Assembly (NCBI GenBank): GCA_903872035.1
Contig: CAIQIZ010000021.1
Location: 18,157-82,156, forward strand
Source: an uncultured bacterium
GTDB taxonomy: Bacteria > Patescibacteriota > Minisyncoccia > Phycocordibacterales > PALSA-1337
Direction: 5' to 3'
DNA: 64,000 nt
Positions 7,110 through 39,618 of the stretch are shown here, piece by piece. The position numbers and the translations under genes were made by a program. The first letter of the stretch is position 1. Each line of letters opens with the position of its first letter. Below the pieces are notes generated by a model. It did no database searches. It saw only the letters and a list, made by a program, of their open reading frames with translations, and was not told the origin of the DNA.

Positions 7110-7131
7110 GAGTGTATCTTATGATTCATAA

Positions 7132-8178
7132 TTATTGTGACACAGAAACAGTAAAAGATAATGTTACCGGCTGTGAGTTCTGTCCGTCATTGACATATAT
7201 CGTATGCGGACCAGTCGGAACATTGGCTGGAACCGTAAATACCAACACAGTTCCATCAGAAGATATATACTGATTTGTAGCACGCAGACTGGAATTGTTT
7301 GCGTCAAAATAGACAGAAGCCGAAGGGGTAAATCCCGAACCGAGCAACACAACTGAAGTCGCATCATCGGCAAAGGCGGACGCCGGCATTATTCTGCTCA
7401 CACTTAATTGCGAAGCAACGACAGTGAACCATCCGCTCGTTAGATCCGCCGGACTGGAGCCGGCATTCGTGCCCTGCAGCCGGATCCTATACGTTCCAGC
7501 CGAAAGAGTCTGATAAGAATTAGCTGATGGGGTCAGGATCTTTCCAACCTTCCAGAGATATTGATTTCCGTTTGTTCCGGAAGATTGATCCTGCGCTATG
7601 AATCCCACACCCATGCCACCGGGCTGCTCCAGAGTTATATTATAATTCCCCGCCGGAGCCTTGTCCCATCTTATGACCGTGGAGCTACCTATAGACAGTA
7701 CCTGACCGGTAGTAGGAGATGTGACGGAACCGGTCGGAATCGATGGCACAGATGCCGTAACTGGTACTTTTATTGTTGGAGTTGAAGCAGGTGTTGCGCC
7801 TTGAACTGAAGATACGCACGTTTTTTTACTAAGCAAGGCACGTGTCATTGGACCTACATAACCAGTTGAAGAAATGTTGTTTGTAAGCTGAAACGCCTTG
7901 ACCGCAGATACTGTCGCTGGTCCAAAATATCCTGTCGGAGTCGCGGCTAGGAAACTCGAGTCGCGCAAGTAGCTTTGAAGTTGATAAACGGGGCCGCCAG
8001 AAAAGCCGTCGGCTGTACCCACACCTATGTCCGAATTCAGATTTATGCATGTCGCTCCATAGACACGATCCGTAACGCCGATAAATATGCCCACCAAAAA
8101 GATAATAGCGACAACCGTTTTATCGACGATCGGTCTTGAACTATTGGAGAGCCATGTATGCACAAATAACTTATTCAT
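7132..8178 (-). CDS. Secreted surface protein with an N-terminal peptidoglycan-binding domain. The track ORF runs to 8223; the probable start is MNKLFV at 8178
   Basis: N-terminal TM/signal VVAIIFLVGIFIGV, then PG_binding_1 motif TGYFGPATVSAVKAFQ...GPMTRALL, then an S/T-rich beta-rich region. Confidence 0.55.
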   Translation of the reverse strand: MNKLFVHTWLSNSSRPIVDKTVVAIIFLVGIFIGVTDRVYGATCINLNSDIGVGTADGFSGGPVYQLQSYLRDSSFLAATPTGYFGPATVSAVKAFQLTNNISSTGYVGPMTRALLSKKTCVSSVQGATPASTPTIKVPVTASVPSIPTGSVTSPTTGQVLSIGSSTVIRWDKAPAGNYNITLEQPGGMGVGFIAQDQSSGTNGNQYLWKVGKILTPSANSYQTLSAGTYRIRLQGTNAGSSPADLTSGWFTVVASQLSVSRIMPASAFADDATSVVLLGSGFTPSASVYFDANNSSLRATNQYISSDGTVLVFTVPANVPTGPHTIYVNDGQNSQPVTLSFTVSVSQ

Positions 8179-8221
8179 TTCACCACCAATTATACACGTA
8201 ACCGGGCGATTTGGACAACAC

Positions 8222-8248
8222 AAAAACCGCCCTAGAAGGGCGGTTTTT
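8222..8248 (-). terminator. Rho-independent terminator (bidirectional hairpin AAAAACCGCCC-TAGAA-GGGCGGTTTTT) downstream of gene 8315..10183
   Basis: Perfect 11-bp stem flanked by A-run and T-run. On the minus strand it is followed by TTTTTGTGTTG. Confidence 0.7.
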
Positions 8249-8314
8249 GTTCCAACATTGTGACCCGTTGGGAGGAGACTCTAAGCTACACGACTACTAA
8301 CTGACCCAGATGGG

Positions 8315-10183
8315 TTAGAAGTTAGCCGTAGCGTATAGAGTGTTTCCAATCGTAGGAGCCGATAGAGAACCTGCGCCTGTAACCGCGCTACCATTCCAAC
8401 CAGTTTCATACTTCAAAGCAGTGATGCTATAAGTACCCTTTACAGTTCCAGGAAGACCGCTTGCGGACTCTGTAACGGTGAAGGTCTTTGTATTACCCGC
8501 ATCGACATAGAAGTGAGCCGATCCACCACTTGTAGTATCACCTGTAGAATCGTTATCGCGGAAGCTGACATTTGTCCATGTTCCAGTTCCCGTTGTAGCA
8601 GCTGTGACCGCATTGGCATAATTCGCATCTACGAAGATCGGATTATTTCCAGCAGTCAAGCTGTAGACGAAGTAGAATGTCTGAGACGATGAAACGTTCG
8701 CTATTGCTCCAGGAACAGAATCATGAGTAACAGCCAAACCACTCTGTGACACACCTGAATCTGCGAACGTCAAGACGTTGCTATTCGGGGTGATCGTGTT
8801 AACAGCGAGCGTGTTGTAAGAATTGTCGATAACGCTCGGGTTGTTTCCAGAAGCACCTGCTGTTCCAACAGCCACAATGCTTGTCGAGGCCATCAAACCA
8901 TTCAATGAGCCGCCAACTCTTCCTGCTGTATCGGCATTGACATTTGCGTAGACTGACACCGGAGTCCAGACATCGGCAGATAGCGGTATCACCAAGCTTG
9001 TGAAGTGCGCTACGGTTATGGCTGCATTCGAATTATCTATCGAGCTTGCAGAATATGTCTTACCTGCCGCCGAAATAGATATCGTGCCGAAAAGGTTAGC
9101 CACATTGCTGTTAGTGCTGATAGTGACATCCAGGCTCTGCATTGTTGAATTCACATTGGCAGACTTGACATCGTATATAGCCAAGAGAACATTATTGGTA
9201 TTAACCGATGTCGAGATCTGCACGTTTCCTGTTGTCGGTTGAGTGCTGTCAGACTTTACATTGATCTGACCAATGTTCGAACCTTGATAGGTGAACGAAC
9301 GCGCGGCAGATACAGTCTCTGTATCTGTCACACCGGTTCCGTCAACTGCACGGACTGATGCTCCGAGGATACTGATCGGGCACGAACCTGTCGGACAACG
9401 ATCTGAGCTCGGAAGGAATGACATATTGACTGTGATGTACTTACTCTGTGCGGCCTTAACAACGAAGCTAGCAGGAACGGTGATGCGATAATCGCTACCG
9501 GCTGTAAGCTCAACAAAGCTTGAAGCAGTCAAGTTGTTAACTGATCCAACGACAGCGCCTGTTTCATCCTTGAGGGTGATTGTGCCTGCGTAGAGCCAGA
9601 TATAGTTGTTAAAATCAAACGTGAAGCCGGAGACTGCCATATCGGAAGCTCCTGCCTGAAGTTTGTATGATGCAACATCATAAGCACTACCCTTGTAGGC
9701 TGAAACACCTGAAGGGGAAGACCACAGTGAGGCCGAGAGGATACCCGGTACACCAACGGTGGTGATACCAACCGTAGTGCCAGTGACCGGAGTCGTGCCT
9801 GTGAGCGGGGTACAATTGTATCCGACTGGACACTGAACGACTGGGGTTCCACCAGTGACTACTGTGCTACCTGCATTCAACTTTCCGCGTGTCAAAGGAC
9901 CGACGAAGCCGGTCGCAGGAAGACCAACGGATGTCTGATAAGCAACAACGGCAGCCTTGGTCTTAGCACCAAAGAATCCTTGGGCCACGCCAGCTGGCAT
10001 GGTGAGGAAGTTATTGGCGACGAGCCAAGTCTGAAGAGCTACAACGTCCTGACCAGTCGAACCAACGGTCAAGTTGTTCGAGAAGGTGTAACCTTGAGCG
10101 CTTGCGATCATGGTGAAGGCCAAAACGGCGATACCAGATGCAATAAGAACTTTTTTCATATCTATTTTTATAATTAAACGCAT
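8315..10183 (-). CDS. Secreted T/S/G-rich surface protein with an N-terminal peptidoglycan-binding domain
   Basis: Signal peptide MKKVLIASGIAVLAFTMIASAQG (alternative start at 10159). PG-binding motif TGQDVVALQTWLVANNF...GFFGAKTKAAVVAYQ...GPLTRGKL. Long low-complexity beta-rich remainder. Confidence 0.6.
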   Translation of the reverse strand: MRLIIKIDMKKVLIASGIAVLAFTMIASAQGYTFSNNLTVGSTGQDVVALQTWLVANNFLTMPAGVAQGFFGAKTKAAVVAYQTSVGLPATGFVGPLTRGKLNAGSTVVTGGTPVVQCPVGYNCTPLTGTTPVTGTTVGITTVGVPGILSASLWSSPSGVSAYKGSAYDVASYKLQAGASDMAVSGFTFDFNNYIWLYAGTITLKDETGAVVGSVNNLTASSFVELTAGSDYRITVPASFVVKAAQSKYITVNMSFLPSSDRCPTGSCPISILGASVRAVDGTGVTDTETVSAARSFTYQGSNIGQINVKSDSTQPTTGNVQISTSVNTNNVLLAIYDVKSANVNSTMQSLDVTISTNSNVANLFGTISISAAGKTYSASSIDNSNAAITVAHFTSLVIPLSADVWTPVSVYANVNADTAGRVGGSLNGLMASTSIVAVGTAGASGNNPSVIDNSYNTLAVNTITPNSNVLTFADSGVSQSGLAVTHDSVPGAIANVSSSQTFYFVYSLTAGNNPIFVDANYANAVTAATTGTGTWTNVSFRDNDSTGDTTSGGSAHFYVDAGNTKTFTVTESASGLPGTVKGTYSITALKYETGWNGSAVTGAGSLSAPTIGNTLYATANF

Positions 10184-20260: not shown

Positions 20261-21838
20261 TTATTTTCTCATAAAGAGCGGTGCTTCAGGCATCTTGTTC
20301 TTTTCCACCAGTCCAACGATCTTTGCAGCAGTCTCAGGAAGGATCGGTAACAGCATCGTTCCGATCATGTGCAAGCGAGCAAGTAATTCCTTGATATCTT
20401 TTTCTGCACCAGCTCTGTCTTCTTTGATCTTCTTAAACGGTTGTCGTTCTTGGACGATCTTGTCAGTGGCTCCAATAAGATCCCAAATGGAATTACTGGC
20501 TTGCTGAATATCGTATTTATCTAGGCCCTCCGAATACTTCTCCAACAAAGTCTTGTACTCAGCAGATTCAGCAAATTCTTTCTCTGCCACCAAATCGTAT
20601 TTGATGCCATTGGTTTCGGCCATCTTCAAAATCCGACTGGTCAAATTACCTAACCCATTAGCCAAGTGTGCATTGAAAGACTCTTTGAATTTATCCGGCG
20701 AATATGCACTATCTTCAAAAGGATGGAGCTCACGCGCAACGTAATAACGCAGAGCATCCGTTCCGTATTCTTTGACGATATCCAATGGGTTTACCGCATT
20801 ACCGAGAGATTTGGACATCTTGACTCCCCCTTCACCTGTAATGAATCCGTCAATGATGATCTGTTTCGATGGTGGGAGCTTCACGGCCATGAGCATGGCT
20901 TGCCACATTGCTGACTGTTGGCGAAGATTGTCCTTTCCGCAATACTGTACAGCACCACCTGACTCGACCCACCATTTGTCGAACTTCTTCATATCAGTCG
21001 GCCAACCAATGGTGGAAATGTAATTGACCAAAGCATCGAACCAGACGTACATGACATGAGCTGGATCGTTCGGAACCGGAATGCCCCAAGGCATCTTTGT
21101 GGCCAATCTCGAGACGCTAAAATCTTCTAGGCCACGCTCAACAAAAGCTCTGATCTCATTTAAACGAGAACTTGGTACGACGAATGGAGTCGTGACAGGA
21201 GAACCGTCTCCGTCTCGCCGCTCTCCCACTCCGCTCGAGCCGGAGACGCTTCCCCGGCCATAGAGATCCATTAAAGGTTTCTGGTAAACACTGAAGCGGA
21301 AAAAATAATTTTCTTCTTCATAGACTTCCAATTCCATCAAAGGATGAAGCGGGCACTTGCCTTCGACAAGCTCCGATTCTGTTTTTTCCAGTTCACAGCC
21401 GACGCAATATTTGATCTTGTAATTCTTTTTGTAGATCAGGCCATTCTTGTCGGCGATCTTCCAGAATTCCTGCGCCGCAGCTATATGATCAGTATCGGTT
21501 GTACGGACGAATTTAAATGTGATCCCTGCTACATTTTCAGCGATACCGAGCAACGGCAACAATTCCTTGAATTTGGCGGCTGCTTCATCGACATATTCTT
21601 GCGGCTCTTTGTGATTTTGTTTGGCTTTTTGGAATATTTTCAATCCGTGTTCATCTGTTCCAGTATTAAAGAATACCTCGTGACCAGCCAAATTCTTGGC
21701 GCGAGCGATGATATCGGCACGGATAAGCTCCATGGCAAAACCGATATGCGGTTCAGCATTTACATAAGGTAAAGTGGTGGTTATGTAAAATGGTGGTTTC
21801 TTTGATCCTGTGGCCGTTTTTGAAGGGTTTTTTGTCAT
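20261..21838 (-). CDS. metG: Methionyl-tRNA synthetase (core form, no C-terminal tRNA-binding domain). Carries an in-frame palindromic-element insertion
   Basis: PYVNAEPHIGFAMELIRADIIAR...GTDEHG and KMSKSLGN class-I motifs. Insert SGSSGVGERRDGDGSPV is encoded at 21198-21255. Confidence 0.85.
   Translation of the reverse strand: MTKNPSKTATGSKKPPFYITTTLPYVNAEPHIGFAMELIRADIIARAKNLAGHEVFFNTGTDEHGLKIFQKAKQNHKEPQEYVDEAAAKFKELLPLLGIAENVAGITFKFVRTTDTDHIAAAQEFWKIADKNGLIYKKNYKIKYCVGCELEKTESELVEGKCPLHPLMELEVYEEENYFFRFSVYQKPLMDLYGRGSVSGSSGVGERRDGDGSPVTTPFVVPSSRLNEIRAFVERGLEDFSVSRLATKMPWGIPVPNDPAHVMYVWFDALVNYISTIGWPTDMKKFDKWWVESGGAVQYCGKDNLRQQSAMWQAMLMAVKLPPSKQIIIDGFITGEGGVKMSKSLGNAVNPLDIVKEYGTDALRYYVARELHPFEDSAYSPDKFKESFNAHLANGLGNLTSRILKMAETNGIKYDLVAEKEFAESAEYKTLLEKYSEGLDKYDIQQASNSIWDLIGATDKIVQERQPFKKIKEDRAGAEKDIKELLARLHMIGTMLLPILPETAAKIVGLVEKNKMPEAPLFMRK
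21198..21255. repeat. Palindromic repeat element, copy E (in-frame inside metG): arms GGAGAACCGTCTCCGTCTCG / CGAGCCGGAGACGCTTCCCC around core CCGCTCTCCCACTCCGCT
   Basis: The core resembles GCCGCTGGCCCACAGCGCTC. The encoded peptide SGSSGVGERRDGDGSP resembles the peptides from copies C and D (NGSGLSVVGQRQTGSVP). Confidence 0.55.
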
Positions 21839-25377: not shown

Positions 25378-26361
25378 CTATTTTCGTGCCTTCATACCCA
25401 ATGATGAAACAATCTTATGTGTATTTCCATGCTTTAGCATTCCCAGATATGAAGCAACCGTCGCCGGCTTTGGATTGTTTAGGAGGGCCTTAATCATTCG
25501 ACGTTTTGTAGTTGTGCGCAATATTCTATGACTGGGAAAATTGATCCACCCGAGAAAATCGATACCGGATGAGTATGTCGCGATAGAGACTTTATCAGGA
25601 TGCAGATCCAGCAAGAGATTCTGTTTCAGAAACGCGCGGATATGTTTCAAAACTTCCTCGATAACGGCTCGGTCGGTATTCATGACAATGAAGTCATCCG
25701 CGAACCGTATGTAATATTTCTCCTTAACCTCGTGCTTCATATACTGGTCAAATTCATTCATGAAAATATTGACCAGCAGTTGAGAAGTCAGATTCCCAAG
25801 CGGCAATCCCTTGCCGGGGATCACCGAATCGAAGCTCTCGACGATTCTTCTCAATAACCAGAGCGTGTCATCGCCGACGTTATGTCGCTTTACGACCTCA
25901 AACAATCGCGCATGATCAATGGAGGCGAAGAATTTTCTGACATCGCATTTTAGGACCCAGCAGGTTTGACTATCATTTCGGCTAGCTCTCCGATATAGCT
26001 CCAGAAACCTTCTTATAGCTTTATGGGTTCCTTTTTCATTCCGGCATGAATAAGAATCGTGGATGAACAGCCTGTTAAAATATGGATACAATACCCGGTA
26101 AACGGCGTGATGAAGAAGTCTATCTCGAACAGTCGCTTTGTGAATCTTTCTAGGTTTTGGGTCGGAAATGTTGAATTCCTCATAGCCGCCGTGTTCGTAC
26201 GTCCTATCTTTCAGATCCGCGTGCAAATCAAATATATTTTCTGACAAATGCATGGAAAATTCCATAACGTCCTTCCGACCACTTTTGCCACATAAAAATT
26301 CCTGCCATGCGACAAAAAGGTTATCCGGCGATATAATTGTTTGGTATAGATCTATATACAC
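25378..26361 (-). CDS. DGR reverse transcriptase
   Basis: RT motifs: PKPRKIHKATVRDRLLHHAV (motifs 1/2). Motif 4 is GLPLGNLTSQLLVNIFMNEFD, with the DGR-specific [ILV]GxxxSQ in place of QGxxxSP. Motif 5 is YIRFADDFIV. Thumb motif GIDFLGW. Confidence 0.85.
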   Translation of the reverse strand: MYIDLYQTIISPDNLFVAWQEFLCGKSGRKDVMEFSMHLSENIFDLHADLKDRTYEHGGYEEFNISDPKPRKIHKATVRDRLLHHAVYRVLYPYFNRLFIHDSYSCRNEKGTHKAIRRFLELYRRASRNDSQTCWVLKCDVRKFFASIDHARLFEVVKRHNVGDDTLWLLRRIVESFDSVIPGKGLPLGNLTSQLLVNIFMNEFDQYMKHEVKEKYYIRFADDFIVMNTDRAVIEEVLKHIRAFLKQNLLLDLHPDKVSIATYSSGIDFLGWINFPSHRILRTTTKRRMIKALLNNPKPATVASYLGMLKHGNTHKIVSSLGMKARK

Positions 26362-28191: not shown

Positions 28192-29529
28192 TTATACCAC
28201 CTTTTGCTTCAAAAAGTCAAGTAGTTCCGCCTCACCAACCCTCTCCTGCTTACCTGTATCTCTGTCGCGCACCGTTACGCCTCCGCCAGCTGGCGGATTT
28301 TTTTCAATAGTATCAAAATCGATGGTCACACAAAATGGCGTACCTATCTCGTCCTGGCGGCGATAGCGCTTGCCGATGTTCCCGTTGTCGTCGAAGGTCG
28401 TGGCTGGGATTTCTTTTTTTATGGCCTTGAATATTTGCTGAGCTCTTTCAACTAGAACTGGCTTGTTGCGAAGCAATGGAAAGACAGCGACTTTATACGG
28501 CGCCACATTCGGAGACAATTTCAAATAAGTACGCTTCTCTCCGCCAAGGTCGTCTTCTTTGTAAGCGTCGGTGAGAACTGCCAGCAGCATACGATCAAGC
28601 CCAAATGAAGGCTCGATGCAGTGTGGGATGAATCTTTCTTTGGATTCTTCGTCGTAATATGACAGATCGACTTTGCTTGATTCGGAATGTTGTTTCAAAT
28701 CAAAGTCGGTACGATAAGCCAGACCAGACAATTCTTTTCGGCCAAATGGAAAATCGAATTCGAAATCGATGGTTCGTTTGGAATAATGAGCGCGATCGCC
28801 GTCCGCTACTTCCAATTCATGGACTTTGGATCCATCCAAACCGACATCGGCCATAAAGTCTTTTGATTCTTGCTGGAAATGTTCGAAAGACTTCTCCCAC
28901 TCCTTTGGGTTCACGAAATACTCTATCTCCATCTGCTCGAACTCTCGTGCACGGAAAAGGAAATCCCTGGGAGCGATCTCATTCCTGAAAGCCTTCCCTA
29001 TCTGAGCCAAACCGAAAGGTAATCGTGGATGCTGCGTGTCGAGGATATTTTTGAAATTAACGAACATGCCCTGAGCGGTCTCCGGACGCAGATAAGAAAT
29101 AGACGATTCGTCTTGAACAGCTCCAACGTGAGTCTGGAACATCATATTGAATTGCTTCTGCTCCCCGACCTTGCCGCCGCAATCCGGACACTTCCCCGCC
29201 TCGGCTAGTTGATCGGCACGAAAGCGATGTTTGCACTTGGAGCATTCAACCAGAGGGTCACTGAAACCGGAAACGTGTCCGGAAGCTTTCCAAACATTTT
29301 GGTTCATAAGGATAGCCGCGTCTACGCCGAACATATCGTGACGGCCATCGACAAAACGCCTCCACCAGAGGTTCTTGATATTATTCTTCAAAGCCACGCC
29401 GAGTGGGCCGTAGTCCCATGTTCCAGCCAATCCACCATATATTTCAGAGCCTTGAAAAATAAACCCGCGGCGTTTGCAGAGCGAGATGATCGCCTCCATA
29501 ACATCGGTTTTGTCGTTTGATTCCGCCAT
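28192..29529 (-). CDS. glyS: Glycyl-tRNA synthetase (alpha2 dimeric type)
   Basis: Class II motifs; C-terminal anticodon-binding domain ...GKRYRRQDEIGTPFCVTIDFDT...VTVRDRDT. Contains an in-frame palindrome-encoded NPPAGGG insert. Confidence 0.85.
   Translation of the reverse strand: MAESNDKTDVMEAIISLCKRRGFIFQGSEIYGGLAGTWDYGPLGVALKNNIKNLWWRRFVDGRHDMFGVDAAILMNQNVWKASGHVSGFSDPLVECSKCKHRFRADQLAEAGKCPDCGGKVGEQKQFNMMFQTHVGAVQDESSISYLRPETAQGMFVNFKNILDTQHPRLPFGLAQIGKAFRNEIAPRDFLFRAREFEQMEIEYFVNPKEWEKSFEHFQQESKDFMADVGLDGSKVHELEVADGDRAHYSKRTIDFEFDFPFGRKELSGLAYRTDFDLKQHSESSKVDLSYYDEESKERFIPHCIEPSFGLDRMLLAVLTDAYKEDDLGGEKRTYLKLSPNVAPYKVAVFPLLRNKPVLVERAQQIFKAIKKEIPATTFDDNGNIGKRYRRQDEIGTPFCVTIDFDTIEKNPPAGGGVTVRDRDTGKQERVGEAELLDFLKQKVV
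28273..28290. repeat. Second copy of the 18-bp palindrome CTCCGCCAGCTGGCGGA(T), in-frame inside glyS (encodes PPAGGG)
   Basis: Matches 17/18 with 27189-27206. The two copies flank the DGR target gene. Confidence 0.5.
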
Positions 29530-29553: not shown

Positions 29554-31503
29554 CTATCTTACTACCGACTCATTCCCAACCTGATATCTCGGGTCTGTAC
29601 TGAACCGTGTGGTCAAAACATCCTGCTTGCTCTCCAGCTGGGCCCCAGTGAAATTATCAGTGGCCGTGAGAGTCGACTGGTTGACCAGGGTCGGGATCTG
29701 GCCGATCTGGGTGACGCTCGGAGTTATCGATATTTGGAATGCTACCTCCCTCCTGTGCGACGAATTCAAAGTATAAGTCCCGACATTCCCTAGATTCCAA
29801 GTGATCGTGCCACTATGGGTATCATAGGTGACATTTTCCGAACTAGGACTGACTGTATTCAACCACTTCACATAAGCCGGCAAAGTTGCGGTCACCTGCG
29901 CCTTACTTATGGCGTTCGAAGTATTATCGACATCCCAGATGACTGTATAAGTTGTGGCCCTTTCAGCTCTAGGTGGGACCAGTCCGCTATTCGCGAACGG
30001 GCCGACCGTGCGCACCATTCGGCCAGAAAGCGAAACGTTGGAAGAGATCCTCACGTTCTTAGTCACAGCCGAAGTCAGTATGGACGGTACATTGGCTTCC
30101 TGGGCACGATTTCCCATGACACTGACCGCGAAGTTCAAAGTCGGATTGACGACCGGACTATTGGGAGTACCGAGATCCTTTGGTGTGATGGTAAACGAGA
30201 TGTGACCAGTATCACCAGCCGCAACTGAGGCAAATTCGTTGTTGGTCTGCTCATTCCAGACGATCTGATTGTTGAGCGAATCGAATATTCCCTGCCCAGA
30301 CTGTACGTCGTTCTTGCTATATGCCGTTCCCGACAGTTTGATAGTTATGCTCATATTGGAAAGAGAAACCGGCAGATTGTTAGACCAGTTGACGACCACG
30401 CGTTCATTTGAATTGAATTGTCCAACATGGTCGTTATTGGTAGCGTCGTTATCCACAGTAACGCCCATTGAAATGAATGGCTTCTGAATGGTCATATCCT
30501 GCTCGACGACCATATATTCCGTTCCGACGCTCTTTGGATCGGACGGGCTCGATGCACCGACAGTGAAATGAAAAGCCCGAAGATCGCTATCTTCGCCTGT
30601 AAGTTTGCCATGAACAATGATCACCCGATTCCCACCGGCCGGAATATCGCCGATCTTCCATGTGGCATTATCGGAAAGCGCTGGAAAACTTGAGCTCATA
30701 TATGTATAACCGAACGGATAAGCAGCTTTGAGGAGAACATTCTTCAATACTTGCTGAGAATTTGATTTGAGGTCTACCTTCATATCGAATTCCTGACCAG
30801 AAGTTATCTCTTTGAATGAAGTCACCGTCACGTTGATCGGCGAGGAATTGATGAGGACATCATAAGACTGGACCTTGGTGAAGGTAGACGAAGTGCCCTT
30901 GACTCCATAGGTCAAAGTAGCTTTGATCGTCTTCTGCAAATTTGCTTCGCCGAAAATGATGACACTGACACTCTCATGTATCGTGCTGCCAGCCGGAATA
31001 TCGCCGATCATCTTATCTAGATTGGTGAGCGGCGTACCTGGCTTATCTGGATCAGTGGCACCAGATGGAAAGTCCACAGACATGTCGGCCAACTGCAAAG
31101 CCACATTATTCTTGTTCTGAATGGTCACATCGAATGTGGCCGGGACTCCCCCAGGAATGGAAACTGGTCCGCTTATGACGATATTGATGTTGTTAGCAGA
31201 GATCAGATTGGCGCCATTGAAGAACAGATACGCGCCGATCCCAACTGCAATGACGCAGAATATGGCGGAGATGATGAGGAGTTTGCTGAAGAATGACATA
31301 TGATGCTCTTGGTATTCCGGATTCAAGGTCTTCGGCCGGACATCTTCTTCCTTTGGATGTTCCCAATCCGTCTTGACCTCGGTCACCGGCTCGGTGAATC
31401 GAAGCTTCCTCTTGGTGCGCACTTCAGGCGCCGTCCGAGAGTACAGCGACTTCTTCAATTCTTCAATGTAGCTTTTGTCTTCCTGAGGAGGCACAGACGT
31501 CAT
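29554..31503 (-). CDS. Hypothetical membrane-anchored cell-surface protein (N-terminal cytoplasmic segment, one TM, large beta-rich ectodomain)
   Basis: TM FFSKLLIISAIFCVIAVGIGAYLFF at residues about 70-95; the remainder is S/T/N-rich. Confidence 0.5.
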   Translation of the reverse strand: MTSVPPQEDKSYIEELKKSLYSRTAPEVRTKRKLRFTEPVTEVKTDWEHPKEEDVRPKTLNPEYQEHHMSFFSKLLIISAIFCVIAVGIGAYLFFNGANLISANNINIVISGPVSIPGGVPATFDVTIQNKNNVALQLADMSVDFPSGATDPDKPGTPLTNLDKMIGDIPAGSTIHESVSVIIFGEANLQKTIKATLTYGVKGTSSTFTKVQSYDVLINSSPINVTVTSFKEITSGQEFDMKVDLKSNSQQVLKNVLLKAAYPFGYTYMSSSFPALSDNATWKIGDIPAGGNRVIIVHGKLTGEDSDLRAFHFTVGASSPSDPKSVGTEYMVVEQDMTIQKPFISMGVTVDNDATNNDHVGQFNSNERVVVNWSNNLPVSLSNMSITIKLSGTAYSKNDVQSGQGIFDSLNNQIVWNEQTNNEFASVAAGDTGHISFTITPKDLGTPNSPVVNPTLNFAVSVMGNRAQEANVPSILTSAVTKNVRISSNVSLSGRMVRTVGPFANSGLVPPRAERATTYTVIWDVDNTSNAISKAQVTATLPAYVKWLNTVSPSSENVTYDTHSGTITWNLGNVGTYTLNSSHRREVAFQISITPSVTQIGQIPTLVNQSTLTATDNFTGAQLESKQDVLTTRFSTDPRYQVGNESVVR

Positions 31504-32345: not shown

Positions 32346-33089
32346 ATGAAGATCAATATCGCAACCATCAATCTCCAATCGGGCGTAGCCACAACAAAAG
32401 GCATCCTTCATTATGTTCTGACTGGTTGGAAATACTGGTTGCCTCATTCAGATAGACCGATCCGACAAGCTGGAGAAATGTTGAAACAAGAAGAAATAGG
32501 CATCGCGTGTGTAACCGAAATCACAGAGAAGTCATTGCGATCGGGATTTCGATCACAAACAGAAACCTTGGCGACCAGTGCTGATTTAAATAATTGGAAT
32601 TTCTTCTCTTCACAAAAGCTCGGCAAATTCTTTTTTTATGAGGGCAATGCTTTGCTTTCTAAATATCCGATTTCTCATCCGATCTCACATCCCCTGCACA
32701 TCGAACTCAATATGCGCATGGCTTTGGAAGAAGCGACCGTTGAAATTCAAGGCCAAAAGATTTCCATTTTCATCGCCCACCTTGCTCTTACCAAGCGTGC
32801 TCGCCAAATCCAAATCAGTGAAATCATTGAAATACTTGAAGATCGAACTGGCCCTATTATTCTAGCCGGTGACTTCAATGAAAGGCGCCCGGGAGCACTT
32901 GATATACTCCTTCAACAAACTCCTCTCAAACAAATATGCACTCTGAAGACTTATCCTTCGTGGGATTCTAAATACTCGTTAGATTACATACTCCTAAGTA
33001 AAGAGTTTACGGTTCTCGACTGCCATATCCCTAATAGCCCGGCTTTTTCAGATCATTCGCCACTAATAGTCAAAGCGGAGCTCAATTAA
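32346..33089 (+). CDS. Endonuclease/exonuclease/phosphatase (EEP) family protein
   Basis: IILAGDFNE and C-terminal SDHSPLIV motifs of the EEP fold. Confidence 0.7.
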   Translation: MKINIATINLQSGVATTKGILHYVLTGWKYWLPHSDRPIRQAGEMLKQEEIGIACVTEITEKSLRSGFRSQTETLATSADLNNWNFFSSQKLGKFFFYEGNALLSKYPISHPISHPLHIELNMRMALEEATVEIQGQKISIFIAHLALTKRARQIQISEIIEILEDRTGPIILAGDFNERRPGALDILLQQTPLKQICTLKTYPSWDSKYSLDYILLSKEFTVLDCHIPNSPAFSDHSPLIVKAELN

Positions 33090-33099
33090 CAAAATCCAA

Positions 33100-33732
33100 T
33101 TACATCATCGACTCTTTCAATGCCTTATTTATATGTTTGTTGAGGATCGTCCGCTTCTCTTTAAGCAGATCGACCAGATCACTAGTGATCTCAAACGACC
33201 GGATGTGGCCGCTCAGTTCCAAATCATCGCCGATGTAACCCAGCCAATGAAGGATGCGCGCGACCGTCAATGATTCGATAGCGGCCAATTGAGCAGCATT
33301 CAAATCTTCACGCTCACCAACAAAGTCCACGCAAGCTTTTATAACATCGAACACTTCAGGGTGTGCTTCTTCACCTTGAAGTAACCGTCTCAAGAGCTGC
33401 GCCAGCCTTGCGATTAAACTTTGAGAAATGGCCATTTCGCCCCCGCTTCGCGGATGGACTTTCCCCGACTGCGTAGCACGAAGGGGAAACGTCCGGAGCG
33501 AAAAGGGGGCGGCAGATGTGAGCCGCCACATCTCCCTTCCCTTTACGAGCGAAAACATTCCCATTGCGTGTTCTTGGGTATAGTATCGCAGCTTTGATCT
33601 CTCCAGACGGATCCCTTGGGCAGCAGCCATTATCAGACCAAATTCACGTGTGAATATGAAAAGCATCTTCCCTGCTTCTCCATAAGGTCGTGCTTGGATT
33701 ATGAATCCTGGAGTTGTGTGAATGTGATGCAT
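33100..33732 (-). CDS. recO: DNA repair protein RecO-like (short form) with an internal hairpin-rich insert
   Basis: N-terminal OB-fold PGFIIQARPYGEAGKMLFIFTREFGLIMAAAQGIR resembles RecO. Nucleotides 33440-33550 contain nested palindromes (GGACTTTCCCC...GGGGAAACGTCC; AGATGTG...CACATCT). Confidence 0.5.
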   Translation of the reverse strand: MHHIHTTPGFIIQARPYGEAGKMLFIFTREFGLIMAAAQGIRLERSKLRYYTQEHAMGMFSLVKGREMWRLTSAAPFSLRTFPLRATQSGKVHPRSGGEMAISQSLIARLAQLLRRLLQGEEAHPEVFDVIKACVDFVGEREDLNAAQLAAIESLTVARILHWLGYIGDDLELSGHIRSFEITSDLVDLLKEKRTILNKHINKALKESMM

Positions 33733-33804: not shown

Positions 33805-36800
33805 TTACTTCTTAATATCAAACTTCTCACCAAATTCAATAGCTGACAAGCGGGTAGCCGCTTTGATAGCTTGTTCGTTCTTACTGATCAAAGATTTCAT
33901 GTCTTCCGTCGCGACCAATACCGCCATATCGTTGACCGTCAATCCTTTCTCTTTGCGGAGGTCTTGGATCTTACGGAGCAATTCGCGGAGCTCGCCTTCT
34001 TCTTTAAGCTCAGGAGTAAGGACAGTATCCAATTCGACATCGGTTTCCATACCACCGTCGAATACAACTTCTTTTACATTAACTTCATCTGTTATGAGCC
34101 CAAGGAGTTCAGAATTTAAATCCTTAATTTTTGAATCCTTAATTTTTAACTTACCCAATGGTTGACGTACATTTATCTTTGCCGTCATCCTGGCTTCTAA
34201 ACCTTTGGAAGCGATAGACCGGACTAATTCCATGCTAGTCAATAATTTCTCATCGACTTTCCCTGCTTTCGGCCATTCTTCGAGGTGTACGCTTTCTTTT
34301 TCGCCTCCAACGCCTTGGTACAAGAAGTCAGCAAAGAAAGGCGTGAGCGGCGCCATGACTTTCGCCAATGATTGCAACACGAATTGTGTGGTAGCCAAAG
34401 CCGCTTGCTTGTCTTCAGCATTTTCTCCTTTGAATCGGTCGCGGGAACGTCGAAGATACCATTGGGAAAGATCTCCGACGAAATCTCGAATCGCTCGTGC
34501 AGGTTCGAAGAATTTGTAGTTGTCCAATCCGGTGGTCGTGGTTTCTATGAGCTGATTGAGTCTGGCGACGATCCACCGATCTAGAACATGAGATGTATTT
34601 GAAAGCTTGAAAATGTTTCCGGACCGAGCGCTGTGGGCCAGCGGCGAGGCGGAAGTATTTTCAAGCGATTCATCCACATATAGCTTATAGAACGACAGCA
34701 CATTCCCCGCCAAATTAAAGACCTTTTTATTTATCTCATCCACAGTCTTCTGATCAAAATTCTTGGAATCACCAGGCTGATTGACAGAATACATCCAGAA
34801 CCGCAGCGCATCAGCTCCATAGGCGTCCATCATCTCGAAAGGATTGACGACATTGCCGATAGATTTCGACATCTTCTTTCCTTGAGGATCGAGGATATGA
34901 CCGAGGCAGATGACATTCTTATAAGCCTTGCCTCTGCCCATGAGCACCCCGACTGCGTGCAATGTGTAGAACCATCCACGCGTCTGATCTATGGCTTCAG
35001 AAATAAAATCAGCTGGGTATGGGAATTTCTCCTTGCCGATCAAGCCGTGTTCTTTGCCACCAAGAACATGATCCTGGGCAAAAGGCATAGACCCGCTATC
35101 GAACCAGACATCCATGACTTCTTTGACTCGGCTCATTTCTCCACCACATTCGCAGGTCAATTTTACTTCGTCTATATAAGGACGGTGAAGGTCGAGCTCA
35201 AAATCAGGATTGTGAGGAAGGATCGAAAAGTCGAGTTTCCTAGCTTCCGCTTTTTGAACATACTTCAACTTATTCCAATCAGCCGCCTCGCTCTTTTCTA
35301 GTCCAGCGGCGGCACTGATAAGCATCATAGCCGGACATCCGTGAGTAACGATCAAAATCGTACGGCCTTGATATTTATTCTCCATTTCATAGAGGAAATC
35401 TCCGACCCTCTTTCTGACATCTCTCCAACTCTCAACCCCATCATCAGCCTTATTGAATCTGTCTTCGTTTATCGGAAACTTCTTATCGAATTTCGCCATA
35501 TCCTTGCCTTCCCAAGAGCCCATCCCCATTTCACGGACTCGCTCATCGACGATAACCTGCCCAGCTTTGAGACCGAGCGTATCAGCGACAAGATGGGCGG
35601 TCTCTTTGGTCCGCATGATCGGTGAAGTTATCACCAAATCTATCCCTGATTTTTTTAAGGCTTCGGCGGTTTTTGATACGTTTTCTTTACCCAACGCAGT
35701 CAAATGGCTCACCATCTCCAAACCGCTGTTCAAAGTCATTTTTACATTATTCTCCGCCTCGCCATGCCGCATAACATAGTAAGTATTGCGCGGCTTCTTG
35801 GAGACATCAGCCACTGATCCAGCAACTTTCCATTTCTTGCATTTGTCGCAAACCCAGACTGGTAAAGGCGTACCCCAATAGCGCTCGCGGGAAATGGCCC
35901 AATCCTTGACTTCGCGGAGCCATTCACCAAAACGACCTTCCTTTATATGCTCCGGCTCCCAATTGATGCCTTCATTTTCTTTGACCAGCTTGTGCCGCAA
36001 GTCCGACATTTTGATGTACCACGAATCACGGGCAAAATAGATGAGCGGTGTGTGACAGCGCCAACAGAAAGGATAGGTGTGCTCGTATTTTTCTTTACTG
36101 AATAGGATGCCACGGTGCGCCAAGTCTTTGATGATCTCCACGTCGGTCGCCTCATTCTTGACGAATTTGCCGGCCAAAAATCCAGCTTCATTTTTGAAAG
36201 TACCGTCTTCTTTTACCAGATGATATTTCGGCAGGCCTACCTTCGTGCCCAATTCAAAATCGTCCTGACCATACATTACAGCGGTGTGCACTATTCCAGT
36301 CCCATCTTCAGTAGTGACAAAATCAGCAGGATATACTTTGTAAGCATTCGACAGCTTCTCTTTTTCCGGACCGGAAATAGATTCTTTGAGAAATGGATAA
36401 AGGGGTTCGTATGAGAGACCGACCAATTCTTTGCCTTTGAAGGTCTCGATTATTTCCGGCTTCGTGTCTTTAAAAACTGCCTCCAGGCGATTTTTGGCAA
36501 GAATGTATGTCGTGGTCGCGTTTTTTGAATCTCCTTCCTCCTTACTGCTTCCTTCTTCCTCCATTTTTCTAACTTTCACATAATCGATCTTCTCCCCTAC
36601 CGCCAAGCCAACGTTGCCCGGCAATGTCCACGGCGTCGTCGTCCAAGCCAACAAATAGGTCTCGCTTGATCCTTCCTCCTTACTGCTCCCTCCTTCCTGC
36701 TTCAAGACCTTGAATTTCACTGTGACTGAAAGATCCTTGACCGTCTCATATCCTTGCGCCAATTCGTGCGACGACAAAACAGTTTGGTCATGAGGACACC

Positions 36801-37419
36801 AAGGGACGACTCGGAAATCTTTGTAGAGCAGATCCTTTTCGTGGACCGTCCGCATGATATTCCAAAGCGCTTCTATGTAAGCTGGCTTGTAGGTGATGTA
36901 GGCATTCTTCAAATCCACCCAGTAACCCATACGATTGGTAAGAAGTTCCCATTCACGCATGTAAGTCCAAACGCTCTCTTTACACTTCTCGTTGAAAGCA
37001 GCGATGCCGTATTCTTCGATCTCCTTTTTGAACTTGAAGCCGAGCTCCTTTTCGACTTGGATCTCTACTGGCAATCCATGAGTATCCCAACCGCCTTTAC
37101 GGCGGACATGGAATCCTTGCATTGTCTTGTACCTAGGAATGGCGTCTTTGAAAGCACGGGCTTCCAAATGATGGATGCCTGGACGACCGTTGGCGGTTGG
37201 TGGACCCTCATAAAAAACGAATTCACCTTTGGGCGCCTTTCCTTCTTGTGATTTATTCAGAGTCTTATCAAAAATCCCCTTCTCTTTCCAGAAGGCCATG
37301 ATCTTCTCCTCGCGCTCGGCGTGAGAGCTTTTGGGCATCGGCGGATTTTTCACGACGACCGGCGTTTTCTGCTCCGTAGGCATCTTTTGGCTTTTCTTGT
37401 GTTCAGAATCTGCTTGCAT
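33805..37419 (-). CDS. ileS: Isoleucyl-tRNA synthetase with an embedded histidine-phosphatase (PGAM-like) domain and two short EEGSSKEEG inserts
   Basis: P.ANG.PGIHH (HIGH-like), KMSKSIGN, WTTTPWTLPGN editing-domain motif, C-terminal zinc/anticodon region. Residues about 545-735 carry RHGE...SP.MRT.ETA...HG phosphatase motifs. Total length 1204 aa. Confidence 0.85.
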   Translation of the reverse strand: MQADSEHKKSQKMPTEQKTPVVVKNPPMPKSSHAEREEKIMAFWKEKGIFDKTLNKSQEGKAPKGEFVFYEGPPTANGRPGIHHLEARAFKDAIPRYKTMQGFHVRRKGGWDTHGLPVEIQVEKELGFKFKKEIEEYGIAAFNEKCKESVWTYMREWELLTNRMGYWVDLKNAYITYKPAYIEALWNIMRTVHEKDLLYKDFRVVPWCPHDQTVLSSHELAQGYETVKDLSVTVKFKVLKQEGGSSKEEGSSETYLLAWTTTPWTLPGNVGLAVGEKIDYVKVRKMEEEGSSKEEGDSKNATTTYILAKNRLEAVFKDTKPEIIETFKGKELVGLSYEPLYPFLKESISGPEKEKLSNAYKVYPADFVTTEDGTGIVHTAVMYGQDDFELGTKVGLPKYHLVKEDGTFKNEAGFLAGKFVKNEATDVEIIKDLAHRGILFSKEKYEHTYPFCWRCHTPLIYFARDSWYIKMSDLRHKLVKENEGINWEPEHIKEGRFGEWLREVKDWAISRERYWGTPLPVWVCDKCKKWKVAGSVADVSKKPRNTYYVMRHGEAENNVKMTLNSGLEMVSHLTALGKENVSKTAEALKKSGIDLVITSPIMRTKETAHLVADTLGLKAGQVIVDERVREMGMGSWEGKDMAKFDKKFPINEDRFNKADDGVESWRDVRKRVGDFLYEMENKYQGRTILIVTHGCPAMMLISAAAGLEKSEAADWNKLKYVQKAEARKLDFSILPHNPDFELDLHRPYIDEVKLTCECGGEMSRVKEVMDVWFDSGSMPFAQDHVLGGKEHGLIGKEKFPYPADFISEAIDQTRGWFYTLHAVGVLMGRGKAYKNVICLGHILDPQGKKMSKSIGNVVNPFEMMDAYGADALRFWMYSVNQPGDSKNFDQKTVDEINKKVFNLAGNVLSFYKLYVDESLENTSASPLAHSARSGNIFKLSNTSHVLDRWIVARLNQLIETTTTGLDNYKFFEPARAIRDFVGDLSQWYLRRSRDRFKGENAEDKQAALATTQFVLQSLAKVMAPLTPFFADFLYQGVGGEKESVHLEEWPKAGKVDEKLLTSMELVRSIASKGLEARMTAKINVRQPLGKLKIKDSKIKDLNSELLGLITDEVNVKEVVFDGGMETDVELDTVLTPELKEEGELRELLRKIQDLRKEKGLTVNDMAVLVATEDMKSLISKNEQAIKAATRLSAIEFGEKFDIKK
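35217..35787 (-). other. Histidine phosphatase (phosphoglycerate-mutase superfamily) domain inserted within IleRS
   Basis: YYVMRHGEAENN (RHG catalytic His), ITSPIMRTKETA, EMGMGSWEG, ILIVTHG (second His). Lies between the IleRS segments ...VWVCDKCKKWKVAGSV and DLHRPYIDEVKLTCECGG. Confidence 0.7.
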
Positions 37420-37713: not shown

Positions 37714-39618
37714 CTACATCTTTTTCGGAACTCTGATCCCCAACAGCCACAAACCTTCCGTCATAATGTTTTTGAAGCCTCTCGTCAACGCCAAGCGATA
37801 CGGCGACAGCGGATCTTTTTCGTCGATGATCGTCTGCGACGCATAGAAACTATTGAAGGCGCCGGCAAGGTTGATCAAGTAGTTAGCCACGACTTGCGGA
37901 GCATATTCGACTCGTGCACGCTCAACAACATCCGGGAAGCGGGCAAGAAGTTTTTCAAGAAGACCAACTTTATCAGGAAGAGCGGAATGATTTTCCAAGC
38001 CAGCTGAAATGCCTGCTTTCTCCAAAACTGCCGACGCTCTGACTACCGAGTATTGTAGATATGGTCCAGAATCACCTTCGAATGAGATAGACGCGGCTGA
38101 GTCGAATACGATATCACTTCCGATAGAAGAACGCAGGATGCTGTACTTTATAGCGCCGATGGCAATAATCGTCGCAACTTCTTCTGCTTCGACGGAATCA
38201 AATCCCCGAGTAGCGATCCTTTTCATCACCATTTCTTTGATATCTCCAATCAATGAATCCGCCGTAACCACATTCCCTGTTCGTGAAGACATCTTTCCCG
38301 CGGCGAAACGCATCATGCCGTGACCAATATGTTTTGTCTTGGCGCCATTCTTCTCGTCAATAAGCGACAAGACTTTCAACAAAACTTTGAAATATTCATT
38401 CTGTTCGCTGGCAGTGATGATGATCGACTGCACCGTATCGGGGTACTTCTCGAACTTGGTGACGTTTAGAGCGACATCTTTGGCTTCATATGTGGCAATG
38501 CCTTTTGAATTAACAAATACCCGTGTATGCAAACCAGCCTTTTCACCATTGAATACGATTGCTCCTTGGCTCTCCTCAAAAACACCCTTCTTCAAGAATT
38601 TTTGGACGATGGCCAGTCCGACCGGAGCCATGTCGCTCTCATATATGGTGTCATCAAAATCAGTTCCGAGTGTCACATACAATTCATTGAAATGATCCAG
38701 GCTCCATTTGCGACCCTTTTCATAGATCTTGTTGACCTCCGGATCAGACTTTTCGTACAAAACTTTATTGAGAGCGTCTATTTCCACCTGCGCCTTTGAT
38801 TGTTCAGTCTCAATGACTGGCTGATCCTTGCCAATTTCATTGGCATCCTTCTTACCATAGCTTCGCGTCCCTTCGACGTACATCTTCCCTAGAAATGCCG
38901 TTTTCTCTTGAATAGACGCTGAATCTTTTGGGAGTTCAGCCAAATGTTTCTGTATGGCCCAAATAGCCTTAGCGATATGCAATCCTTGATCCGATGGATA
39001 ACATATACGAATGACCTTGGCACCCGATGATTCGATAAGTCGCGAAAGAGATTCGCCGATAGAATTCGACATCAAATGCCCAATATGGAAAACCTTGAAA
39101 GCATTGGGGTCGGTGTATTCGACAAGGATCGGCCCGCTTTTTTCGTGCGACTTTAGTTGACTAAAGTGCTTCGCGGCGGAAGTTCTCCCACCTGCAACAG
39201 CCGAACCCATCACGGTCGAATCCGTCAAAGGTAAATCAGCCGCGACAAATTTCAATACCTCTTTGGCCATAACATCATCCTTAATTGTAAAGTTAATAAA
39301 TCCTGGACCGGCGATCGAGACATCTTTGATCGTGACCGGCATATTTTTCTTGAATCCTTCGACAACCGCATCCGCCAAGGCTTTTGGTGACTGGCCGAGT
39401 TTTTTTGCATAAACCAAAGCTGCATTTGTCGTAAAGTCGCCATGGTCCGGGTTTTCTGGGTAATCGATCTTTACCACTACCCCTCCACTAGCCAAATCAT
39501 CGGCCACTCCTAGGCAGTTCATTATGTCTTGCAGCCGCTTTACTATTTCGTTTTTCATCTCGATATTGTAGCAAAAATGTCGCCAATTTGCCTCTAAAGC
39601 TTTAGTTAGACTTGACAA
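37714..39618 (-). CDS. argS: Arginyl-tRNA synthetase
   Basis: N-terminal Arg_tRNA_synt_N-like domain, HIGH-like FHIGHLMS, class-I catalytic core, C-terminal DALR anticodon-binding domain. Confidence 0.85.
   Translation of the reverse strand: MSSLTKALEANWRHFCYNIEMKNEIVKRLQDIMNCLGVADDLASGGVVVKIDYPENPDHGDFTTNAALVYAKKLGQSPKALADAVVEGFKKNMPVTIKDVSIAGPGFINFTIKDDVMAKEVLKFVAADLPLTDSTVMGSAVAGGRTSAAKHFSQLKSHEKSGPILVEYTDPNAFKVFHIGHLMSNSIGESLSRLIESSGAKVIRICYPSDQGLHIAKAIWAIQKHLAELPKDSASIQEKTAFLGKMYVEGTRSYGKKDANEIGKDQPVIETEQSKAQVEIDALNKVLYEKSDPEVNKIYEKGRKWSLDHFNELYVTLGTDFDDTIYESDMAPVGLAIVQKFLKKGVFEESQGAIVFNGEKAGLHTRVFVNSKGIATYEAKDVALNVTKFEKYPDTVQSIIITASEQNEYFKVLLKVLSLIDEKNGAKTKHIGHGMMRFAAGKMSSRTGNVVTADSLIGDIKEMVMKRIATRGFDSVEAEEVATIIAIGAIKYSILRSSIGSDIVFDSAASISFEGDSGPYLQYSVVRASAVLEKAGISAGLENHSALPDKVGLLEKLLARFPDVVERARVEYAPQVVANYLINLAGAFNSFYASQTIIDEKDPLSPYRLALTRGFKNIMTEGLWLLGIRVPKKM

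Follow-up and report, generated by a model that had tools for sequence, protein, structure and literature searches.

We analysed a 64,000-nucleotide (nt) stretch of DNA (hereafter the window) from an uncultured patescibacterium (contig CAIQIZ010000021.1 of assembly GCA_903872035.1), and found that a complete open reading frame (ORF) of 1204 residues, at 33805..37419 on the minus strand, encodes a type-2 isoleucyl-tRNA synthetase (IleRS) with a second enzyme, a branch-1 histidine phosphatase, nested in its catalytic domain. The phosphatase splits the Pfam domain tRNA-synt_1 into residues 40-542 and a later segment. The insert, its predicted catalytic residues and the synthetase segments that enclose it are located as follows.

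35794..37419, minus strand: residues 1-542, comprising an N-terminal extension, the first Rossmann half, connective peptide 1 (CP1) and the start of the second half, including WAISRERYWGTPLPVW (Pfam tRNA-synt_1)
35839..35850, minus strand: CDKC (residues 524-527), first cysteine pair of the zinc knuckle (translation)
35215..35793, minus strand: nested branch-1 histidine phosphatase, residues 543-735, including a C-terminal strand of the NAE.RK.DF type that lies past the Pfam match (translation)
35761..35769, minus strand: RHG (residues 551-553), predicted catalytic Arg and nucleophilic His (R551 and H552 invariant)
35611..35613, minus strand: R603, second phosphate-binding Arg, in the SP..R..ET motif (invariant; codon checked)
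35530..35532, minus strand: E630, putative general acid, in the RExxxG motif (invariant; codon checked)
35341..35343, minus strand: H693, second catalytic His, in IVTHG (invariant; codon checked)
34582..35214, minus strand: residues 736-946, rest of the catalytic domain with DLHRPYIDE, DVWFDSGSMPFAQ and the KMSKS region (aligns to 8c8w from residue 480 onward)
35146..35154, minus strand: CEC (residues 756-758), second cysteine pair of the zinc knuckle (translation)

The Pfam family His_Phos_1 (PF00300) was matched by residues 548-715 (nt 35275-35778) with an E-value of 1.9e-34 and 119.5 bits, against a gathering threshold of 21.7. A first-pass annotation of the same DNA had predicted a phosphoglycerate mutase-like phosphatase within tRNA-synt_1, and the Pfam match, a predicted structure and a survey of orthologues all agree with it. 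The four motifs that it quoted are present in the insert (RHGEAENN at residue 551, SPIMRTKETA at 599, EMGMGSWEG at 630 and IVTHG at 690), and the boundaries that it gave, 35217-35787, match the 35215-35793 found here. When the protein was aligned to the P. megaterium IleRS2 structure 8c8w, residues 31-541 corresponded to chain residues 8-476 and residues 736-1163 to chain residues 480-895. The alignment jumps from chain residue 476 to 480, and therefore about 190 residues stand in for about three loop residues. This site is the tip of the zinc knuckle, between its two cysteine pairs (CxxC and CxC), after WGTPLPVW and before DVWFDSG, with KMSKS about 90 residues further downstream. All four knuckle positions are Cys in 119 of the 120 best homologues.

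Among these 120 homologues (60-74% identity, 1115-1242 residues), the insert is much more variable than its host, with a mean identity to the query of about 45% versus 71-75% for the IleRS core. R551, H552, N558, R603, E630 and H693 are nevertheless invariant in 120/120, and the distance between the cysteine pairs is kept at 225-240 residues. The catalytic core of PF00300 is complete, as RHG, the second Arg, the second His and an acidic donor are all present; we take E630 to be the general acid by analogy, because it holds the position of the glutamate in the ERHYG motif of the cofactor-dependent phosphoglycerate mutase (dPGM). Judged by its conserved residues, the nested phosphatase appears catalytically intact and is apparently an active phosphomonoesterase.

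We compared the insert with curated NCBIfam models. The top match was PRK07238, RNase H/acid phosphatase (100.9 bits, E=9e-29, cutoff 326), and the others were dPGM_arch (89.5 bits, cutoff 225), CobC TIGR03162 (80.2 bits, cutoff 162.9), PspA (65.5 bits, cutoff 350) and SixA (35.2 bits, cutoff 74.5). Since these scores are far under the curated cutoffs, we rejected the assignment of the insert to the dPGM, CobC, PspA, SixA or RNase H/acid phosphatase families. The nearest solved relatives are PspA 4ij5, PhoE 1h2e and CobC 6nru, with profile E-values from 4e-25 to 6e-22. A PADLOC scan gave no match to the insert, and a PHROGs scan matched one family of unknown function only.

An AlphaFold2 model of the window IleRS was built with a 66-sequence alignment, and had a mean predicted local distance difference test score (pLDDT) of 85 and a predicted TM-score of 0.74. 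The insert, modelled as alternating strands and helices, is among the best-predicted parts (pLDDT about 87-97). In a Foldseek search with the whole protein, which returned only IleRS, the model matched type-2 and eukaryotic (yeast) IleRS with target-normalised TM-scores of 0.76-0.86. Because the insert is confidently modelled and the rest superposes on a normal IleRS, the phosphatase is predicted to be a separate domain, an independent excursion from an intact IleRS body.

The identical protein was found on 19 contigs from four sources (NCBI, JGI, Logan and ENA). The insert is in frame, and its GC content (0.44-0.48) is the same as that of the flanks. PF00300 and the IleRS domains occur together in 120/120 best homologues which, where named, belong to Paceibacterota, Taylorbacteria, Parcubacteria or Patescibacteria. 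We also used the insert alone as a query against the representatives of 1.84 billion clusters made at 50% identity, and nested IleRS, complete or as fragments, accounted for about 99 of the best 150 representatives matched, with cores down to about 35-45% identity with the window IleRS. A scan of GTDB species-representative genomes yielded at least 546 confirmed relatives, and the best 80 loci were examined. The phosphatase lies between the IleRS halves in 80/80 of them, and all 80 belong to the Paceibacteria/Parcubacteria group of Patescibacteria, under the names Paceibacterota, Taylor-, Nomura-, Vogel-, Adler- and Kaiserbacteria and Minisyncoccia, many with automatic 'Saccharibacteria' labels. 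Overall, the architecture was found in hundreds of independent assemblies. Across a large part of the Patescibacteria, the nested architecture is the rule and no peculiarity of the window genome; the earlier description of it as unusual holds among characterised synthetases but not within this group. Databases name these proteins only 'class I tRNA ligase family protein' or, once, 'valyl-tRNA synthetase/broad specificity phosphatase PhoE'. Nothing was found in favour of an assembly chimera or a gene-calling artefact. The 19 contigs with the identical protein, the homologues and the GTDB loci exclude the chimera that the first-pass annotation had listed as a possible refutation, and the unbroken frame and even composition leave an artefact of either kind with a negligible chance.

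The closest matches of the insert outside IleRS include free proteins of about 190 residues that start with MKLNNKYFLLRHG and end with GELRKLN, a C-terminal strand motif that they have in common with the nested form. One of them, P0155, is encoded between ArgRS and a 931-residue IleRS that has no insert and carries only a short loop in its knuckle (CDKCKKKVVVGSIKELEKLSSVKVTDLHKHFIDKIEFSCSC). The gene order at this locus is that of the window, except for one additional short ORF ahead of RecO, and 1 nt separates the stop codon of the phosphatase gene from the start of ileS. P0155 is likewise under all curated subfamily cutoffs, and its marginal PADLOC match (E=4.6e-4) is probably due to chance.

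We also scanned metagenome contigs with an alignment of the free proteins and classified the 80 best loci. The phosphatase gene lies directly upstream of an insert-less ileS in 45 of them; a further 25 are nested, 2 have the two genes one ORF apart, and in 6 the contig end is too near. Over the adjacent loci (n=46), the gap between phosphatase and ileS has an approximate median of 5 nt (interquartile range -2 to 17), and ArgRS precedes the free gene in 37/46. The same domain is thus nested in some genomes and an adjacent gene elsewhere, a Rosetta-stone pattern that marks the phosphatase as a conserved IleRS partner. The window IleRS is the fused state of this pair. It is well supported that the phosphatase is a dedicated partner of IleRS, either nested in it or encoded by a gene of about 190 codons abutting the 5' end of an insert-less ileS.

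In crude neighbour-joining trees without support values, the nested and adjacent states interleave, with 7 parsimony changes on the IleRS core and 4 on the phosphatase. This suggests several switches between the two states; since the trees carry no support values, the ancestral state and the direction of nesting were not inferred. The variant of the HIGH signature in the synthetase was uncorrelated with the arrangement, as the nested phosphatases among the relatives were split evenly between GxHH (n=39) and HxGH (n=39) hosts. As for free copies away from ileS, two of them (L140 3038-3625 and L154 4998-5579) are oriented divergently beside an 855-residue ORF that is SecA-like by eye only. The context of P0145 is an archaeal-looking neighbourhood, and P0172 and P0185 are on short contigs.

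We found that the phosphatase also occurs in other numbers and other hosts. Some IleRS have two or three phosphatase domains, all copies of which keep RH[GA], and synthetases with 2-4 tandem histidine phosphatase domains include P0138, P0143, P0246, P0264, P0261 and P0166. In P0246, an IleRS cluster representative, the second copy lies directly ahead of the anticodon-binding domain. The extra tandem copies often have the commoner RHGETDWN-type motif, and therefore more than one phosphatase subfamily has been captured.

A nested copy was also found in the valyl-tRNA synthetase (ValRS) of other members of the Candidate Phyla Radiation (CPR; Magasanikbacteria-like), in about 35/120 of the closest homologues of P0271, and one ValRS fragment has four copies. 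The ValRS of this comparison are P0271 and P0278-P0396, with locus L168 6001-9168. In ValRS the insertion site follows DTWFSSG..TLGWP and is not in a knuckle loop. As this site differs from that of IleRS, the insertion was independent, into the same KMSKS-proximal part of the fold. A second Rosetta-stone link was sought for ValRS at an insert-less relative with the same gene order (P0287), where no phosphatase gene was present within 6 kb; in ValRS the phosphatase domain is simply present or absent. In the genomes with a nested ValRS, valS adjoins enolase and two genes for the cofactor-independent phosphoglycerate mutase (iPGM).

The third host is TsaC (threonylcarbamoyl-AMP synthase), which has a C-terminal phosphatase copy in 4 clusters. 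We give this fusion little weight, because it is rare and because TsaC fuses to many domains. The CPR homologues of TsaC (P0397-P0513) are a fusion hub, with the MGMT DNA-binding domain as the commonest C-terminal partner and TruB, LigT/CPDase 2H phosphoesterases, Nudix, GNAT, purine DNA glycosylase and His_Phos as others.

Apart from the insert, the window protein has the full domain order of a type-2 IleRS: Rossmann fold, CP1 editing domain, zinc knuckle, KMSKS, anticodon-binding domain and type-2 C-terminal domains. The remaining signature elements and domains are listed below.

Within 35794..37419, minus strand: CP1 editing motifs, WTTTPWT at residue 259 and GTGIVH at residue 373 (translation)
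37168..37179, minus strand: GIHH (residues 81-84), GxHH variant of the class-I HIGH signature (translation)
34861..34875, minus strand: KMSKS (residues 849-853), class-I signature loop (translation)
34156..34581, minus strand: anticodon-binding helical domain, residues 947-1088 (Pfam Anticodon_1, E=1.5e-31)
33823..34122, minus strand: type-2 C-terminal domain, residues 1100-1199 (Pfam DUF5915, E=2.5e-14)

The whole protein scored 871.5 bits with TIGR00392 (ileS, cutoff 621.4) and stayed under the cutoffs of the ValRS and LeuRS models of NCBIfam. Together with the presence and conservation of GIHH and KMSKS, this bears out the first-pass identification of an IleRS with class-I hallmarks at 33805-37419. 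Its best solved relatives are the IleRS2 structures 8c8w/8c8u (E about 1e-233), and its editing domain, with the threonine-rich WTTTPWT and the GTG.VH motif of CP1, matches the isolated T. thermophilus editing domain 1wk8. Mean identity is 74.5% to 119 homologues over residues 1-542 and 71% among homologues over residues 736-946. GIHH aligns to GVHH of P. megaterium IleRS2; H84 is invariant in the homologue alignment and G81, I82 and H83 are conserved in at least 90%, as is the final S of KMSKS, whose first four residues are invariant. Mupirocin hyper-resistance has been linked to GxHH in place of HIGH. Type-2 IleRS have DUF5915/ARD-type C-terminal domains and not the zinc-binding C-terminus of type 1 (bioRxiv 10.64898/2026.02.03.703510); DUF5915 is present in the window protein, and its best structure and fold matches are IleRS2 and eukaryotic IleRS. 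From its orthology and the syntenic position of ileS, the enzyme would charge tRNA(Ile) with isoleucine, and it is well supported as the housekeeping type-2 IleRS of a Paceibacteria-type (CPR/Patescibacteria) bacterium.

Its CP1 region contains two low-complexity insertions rich in Gly, Ser, Glu and Lys (residues about 241-252 and 288-303; window positions about 36510-36700, minus strand), which include the near-repeats SSKEEGSS and EGSSKEEG; the model has its lowest confidence here (model residues 218-225 and 265-275).

The genes on both sides of ileS belong to a conserved order.

37714..39618, minus strand: ArgRS, upstream neighbour; in relatives the free phosphatase gene lies between ArgRS and ileS (Pfam, synteny)
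33100..33732, minus strand: RecO, downstream neighbour and part of the conserved order ArgRS-IleRS-RecO-649-residue protein-class II aminoacyl-tRNA synthetase (Pfam RecO_N, synteny)

Most of the best 80 GTDB loci that are long enough show this order as in the window, with a protein of about 650 residues without a Pfam match in the fourth place. In the window this protein has 649 residues and is encoded at 29554-31503 (minus strand), after RecO and before the class II synthetase. It is syntenic in most of the best 80 Paceibacteria loci at 27-64% identity, a conserved lineage protein. A protein of the endonuclease/exonuclease/phosphatase family (32346-33089, plus strand) adjoins RecO, two genes from IleRS. 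The window holds four synthetase genes, namely MetRS (20261-21838), the class II synthetase (28192-29529), IleRS and ArgRS; tRNA and tmRNA genes were looked for over the whole 64-kb window (1-64000), and none was found. Elsewhere, a 327-residue ORF (25378-26361, minus strand) has a reverse transcriptase domain (RVT_1, E=2.4e-27) and could be a retron, a diversity-generating retroelement or a group II intron remnant. At 5577-10183 (minus strand) there are three consecutive large proteins, each with the peptidoglycan-binding domain PG_binding_1, adjoining an O-antigen-ligase-like protein and a Wzt/ABC-2 exporter.

The synthetase and the phosphatase seem to cooperate. It is firmly supported that the phosphatase has been selected for expression with IleRS, often attached near the KMSKS lobe, and we infer that it is coupled physically or functionally to the synthetic site. 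A nucleotide or a tRNA-related phosphate, the substrates that the first-pass annotation had suggested, is plausible. We weakly favour, with a probability of roughly 0.25-0.3 and a speculative substrate, a phosphomonoesterase working in cis on the 3' end of the tRNA that IleRS has bound. The IleRS body would hold tRNA(Ile), and the tethered phosphatase would treat its flexible 3' CCA end in cis, removing a 2'- or 3'-terminal phosphate or pyrophosphate that blocks aminoacylation. A phospho-His552 intermediate would form, with E630 as the general acid, and would then be hydrolysed by water. The free phosphatase would bind IleRS non-covalently and play the same role.

We lean towards action on the tRNA end because tethering chiefly helps with a macromolecular substrate that the host already holds, and because CP1 provides a precedent within the same enzyme. 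In class Ia synthetases CP1 is a Rossmann-nested hydrolase that works in cis on the tRNA 3' end. The same nested logic is proposed for the phosphatase, but CP1 is present in all IleRS, ValRS and LeuRS, its target is an ester and its fold is unrelated. Two further reasons are that the alternative fusion partners of TsaC include RNA-end or tRNA enzymes (LigT/CPDase, TruB), and that bacterial toxins are known to pyrophosphorylate the tRNA 3'-CCA end and thereby to block charging (PMC11559606; bioRxiv 10.1101/2021.04.30.441581).

Several observations weigh against this proposal. The solved relatives of the insert are all small-molecule enzymes (phosphoserine, alpha-ribazole phosphate, broad-specificity), and we know of no histidine phosphatase that acts on RNA ends. 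The nested copies are not basic (median isoelectric point 6.3), which lends no support to RNA binding, and the 2-4 tandem copies and several insertion sites argue against a precise geometry. The pairing with the synthetase also has gaps: a few free copies lie away from ileS, IleRS is absent within 5 kb in 2 of the 80 best metagenome loci, and the insert-less ValRS relative P0287 lacks a phosphatase gene nearby. In addition, general tRNA-end repair would more logically fit the CCA-adding enzyme than one or two synthetases. The E. coli CCA-adding enzyme, which has phosphatase activity, is a tRNA 3'-end enzyme with a phosphoesterase domain that differs in fold and is no histidine phosphatase.

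Other readings of the same data have to be weighed against action on the tRNA end. One possible, if doubtful, function lies on the product side, where the phosphatase would hydrolyse inorganic pyrophosphate (PPi) or another nucleotide-type phosphate (AMP, p4A, pAp) as it leaves the synthetic site. Amino-acid activation would become effectively irreversible, which would matter most for IleRS and ValRS, the classical proofreading enzymes. The hosts found (IleRS, ValRS and TsaC) all form adenylates and release PPi, every insertion site flanks the KMSKS loop, which in the class-I mechanism holds the PPi moiety of ATP, and a copy number that varies from 1 to 4 fits a dosage effect. However, PPi hydrolysis is undocumented for this branch-1 group, and a literature search gave only branch-2 or other cases; tethering brings little kinetic gain for a small, fast-diffusing product, and LeuRS, also an editing enzyme, was not seen as a host. 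It is also conceivable, though we consider it unlikely, that the phosphatase is an unrelated metabolic enzyme (a short phosphoglycerate mutase, a phosphoserine phosphatase or a CobC-like enzyme) that is merely co-transcribed or fused with ileS in small genomes. Its best NCBIfam matches are dPGM_arch, CobC, PspA and RNase H/acid phosphatase, one source labels a related sequence K15634 gpmB, some free copies stand away from ileS, and CPR proteins, TsaC among them, have many fusions that look arbitrary. Yet every subfamily score falls far short of its cutoff, and nesting in a catalytic domain is a costly way to secure co-expression that nonetheless arose at several sites in two synthetases. The pairing with ileS is moreover kept in both arrangements across IleRS cores down to about 35% identity, and the genomes with a nested ValRS have two iPGM genes alongside.

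A regulatory module, which would dephosphorylate IleRS or another protein in the manner of SixA or Sts, or would sense a phosphorylated metabolite and so tune IleRS, is quite improbable. There is weak similarity to SixA, and an insertion beside the mobile KMSKS lobe could relay ligand binding; but the SixA score is under its cutoff (35 against 74.5), the conserved neighbourhood showed no kinase partner, and the conserved full catalytic set would be superfluous for a pure sensor. Even less probable is that the insertion is neutral or selfish, or that a permissive loop tolerates a purely structural pseudo-enzyme. The knuckle loop is a hotspot of lineage-specific insertions in class Ia synthetases; the leucine-specific domain of bacterial LeuRS is one of them, in the same stretch before KMSKS, with a different fold and no histidine phosphatase. 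The patchy presence in ValRS and the tandem amplification point the same way. On the other side, the catalytic residues are invariant in all 120 homologues at 45% identity, the length is tightly held, the domain is kept in all 80 GTDB genomes checked, and the flanks are without mobile-element features. Because of this invariance, and because the phosphatase persists as an operon partner of ileS outside the nested arrangement, the selfish insertion considered by the first-pass annotation is poorly supported.

Comparison with known systems places both parts in well-known families. The window IleRS has the full domain order and the GxHH motif in common with type-2 IleRS (P. megaterium 8c8u/8c8v/8c8w; T. 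thermophilus 1ile), and adds to it the roughly 190 knuckle-loop residues, an N-terminal extension of about 30 residues and the low-complexity CP1 inserts. The insert has the Pfam family, size (about 190-210 residues) and catalytic residues of the PhoE/PspA/CobC group (1h2e, 4ij5, 6nru); members of that group are free small-molecule phosphatases, whereas the window phosphatase and its relatives are nested in or operon-linked to a synthetase and carry a C-terminal strand motif of their own, NAE.RK.DF when nested and GELRKLN when free. A histidine phosphatase is also fused to a nucleic-acid enzyme in PRK07238 (Rv2228c type), but end to end and not nested. NF040702 of NCBIfam, an IleRS with an N-acetyltransferase domain, is a curated precedent for an additional catalytic domain in IleRS. 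Its accessory domain has the GNAT fold, and the window IleRS scored 288 bits with this model against a cutoff of 1999 and had no GNAT Pfam match. Our literature search found no paper on an aminoacyl-tRNA synthetase with a histidine phosphatase inside it or in its operon, and the word 'phosphatase' does not occur in a 2026 survey of 96,219 IleRS domain architectures. The nested and operon-linked combination thus appears to be undescribed.

Aminoacyl-tRNA synthetases rank with the most thoroughly studied enzymes, and their accessory domains (editing domains, appended eukaryotic domains, GNAT) have each revealed new biology. An apparently active phosphatase that lies inside an essential synthetase in a large and mostly uncultured radiation, and stays beside the synthetase gene wherever it is not built in, is genomic evidence that points strongly to a shared function. 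If the substrate is a tRNA end, it would represent a new quality-control or repair step of translation, and if it is PPi, a new way to keep proofreading irreversible. Metabolic reconstruction of CPR genomes is affected as well, since KEGG-style annotation can count the domain as a 'phosphoglycerate mutase' (gpmB). More tentatively, the class Ia synthetases of Patescibacteria may possess, in the phosphatase, a second cis-acting hydrolytic station, which the tRNA 3' end would visit besides the synthetic and editing sites. Were this true, it would imply that tRNA 3' ends are phosphorylated or pyrophosphorylated and then repaired, in a cycle so far unrecognised, in these episymbiotic bacteria, for example as a built-in counter-measure to CCA-targeting toxins.

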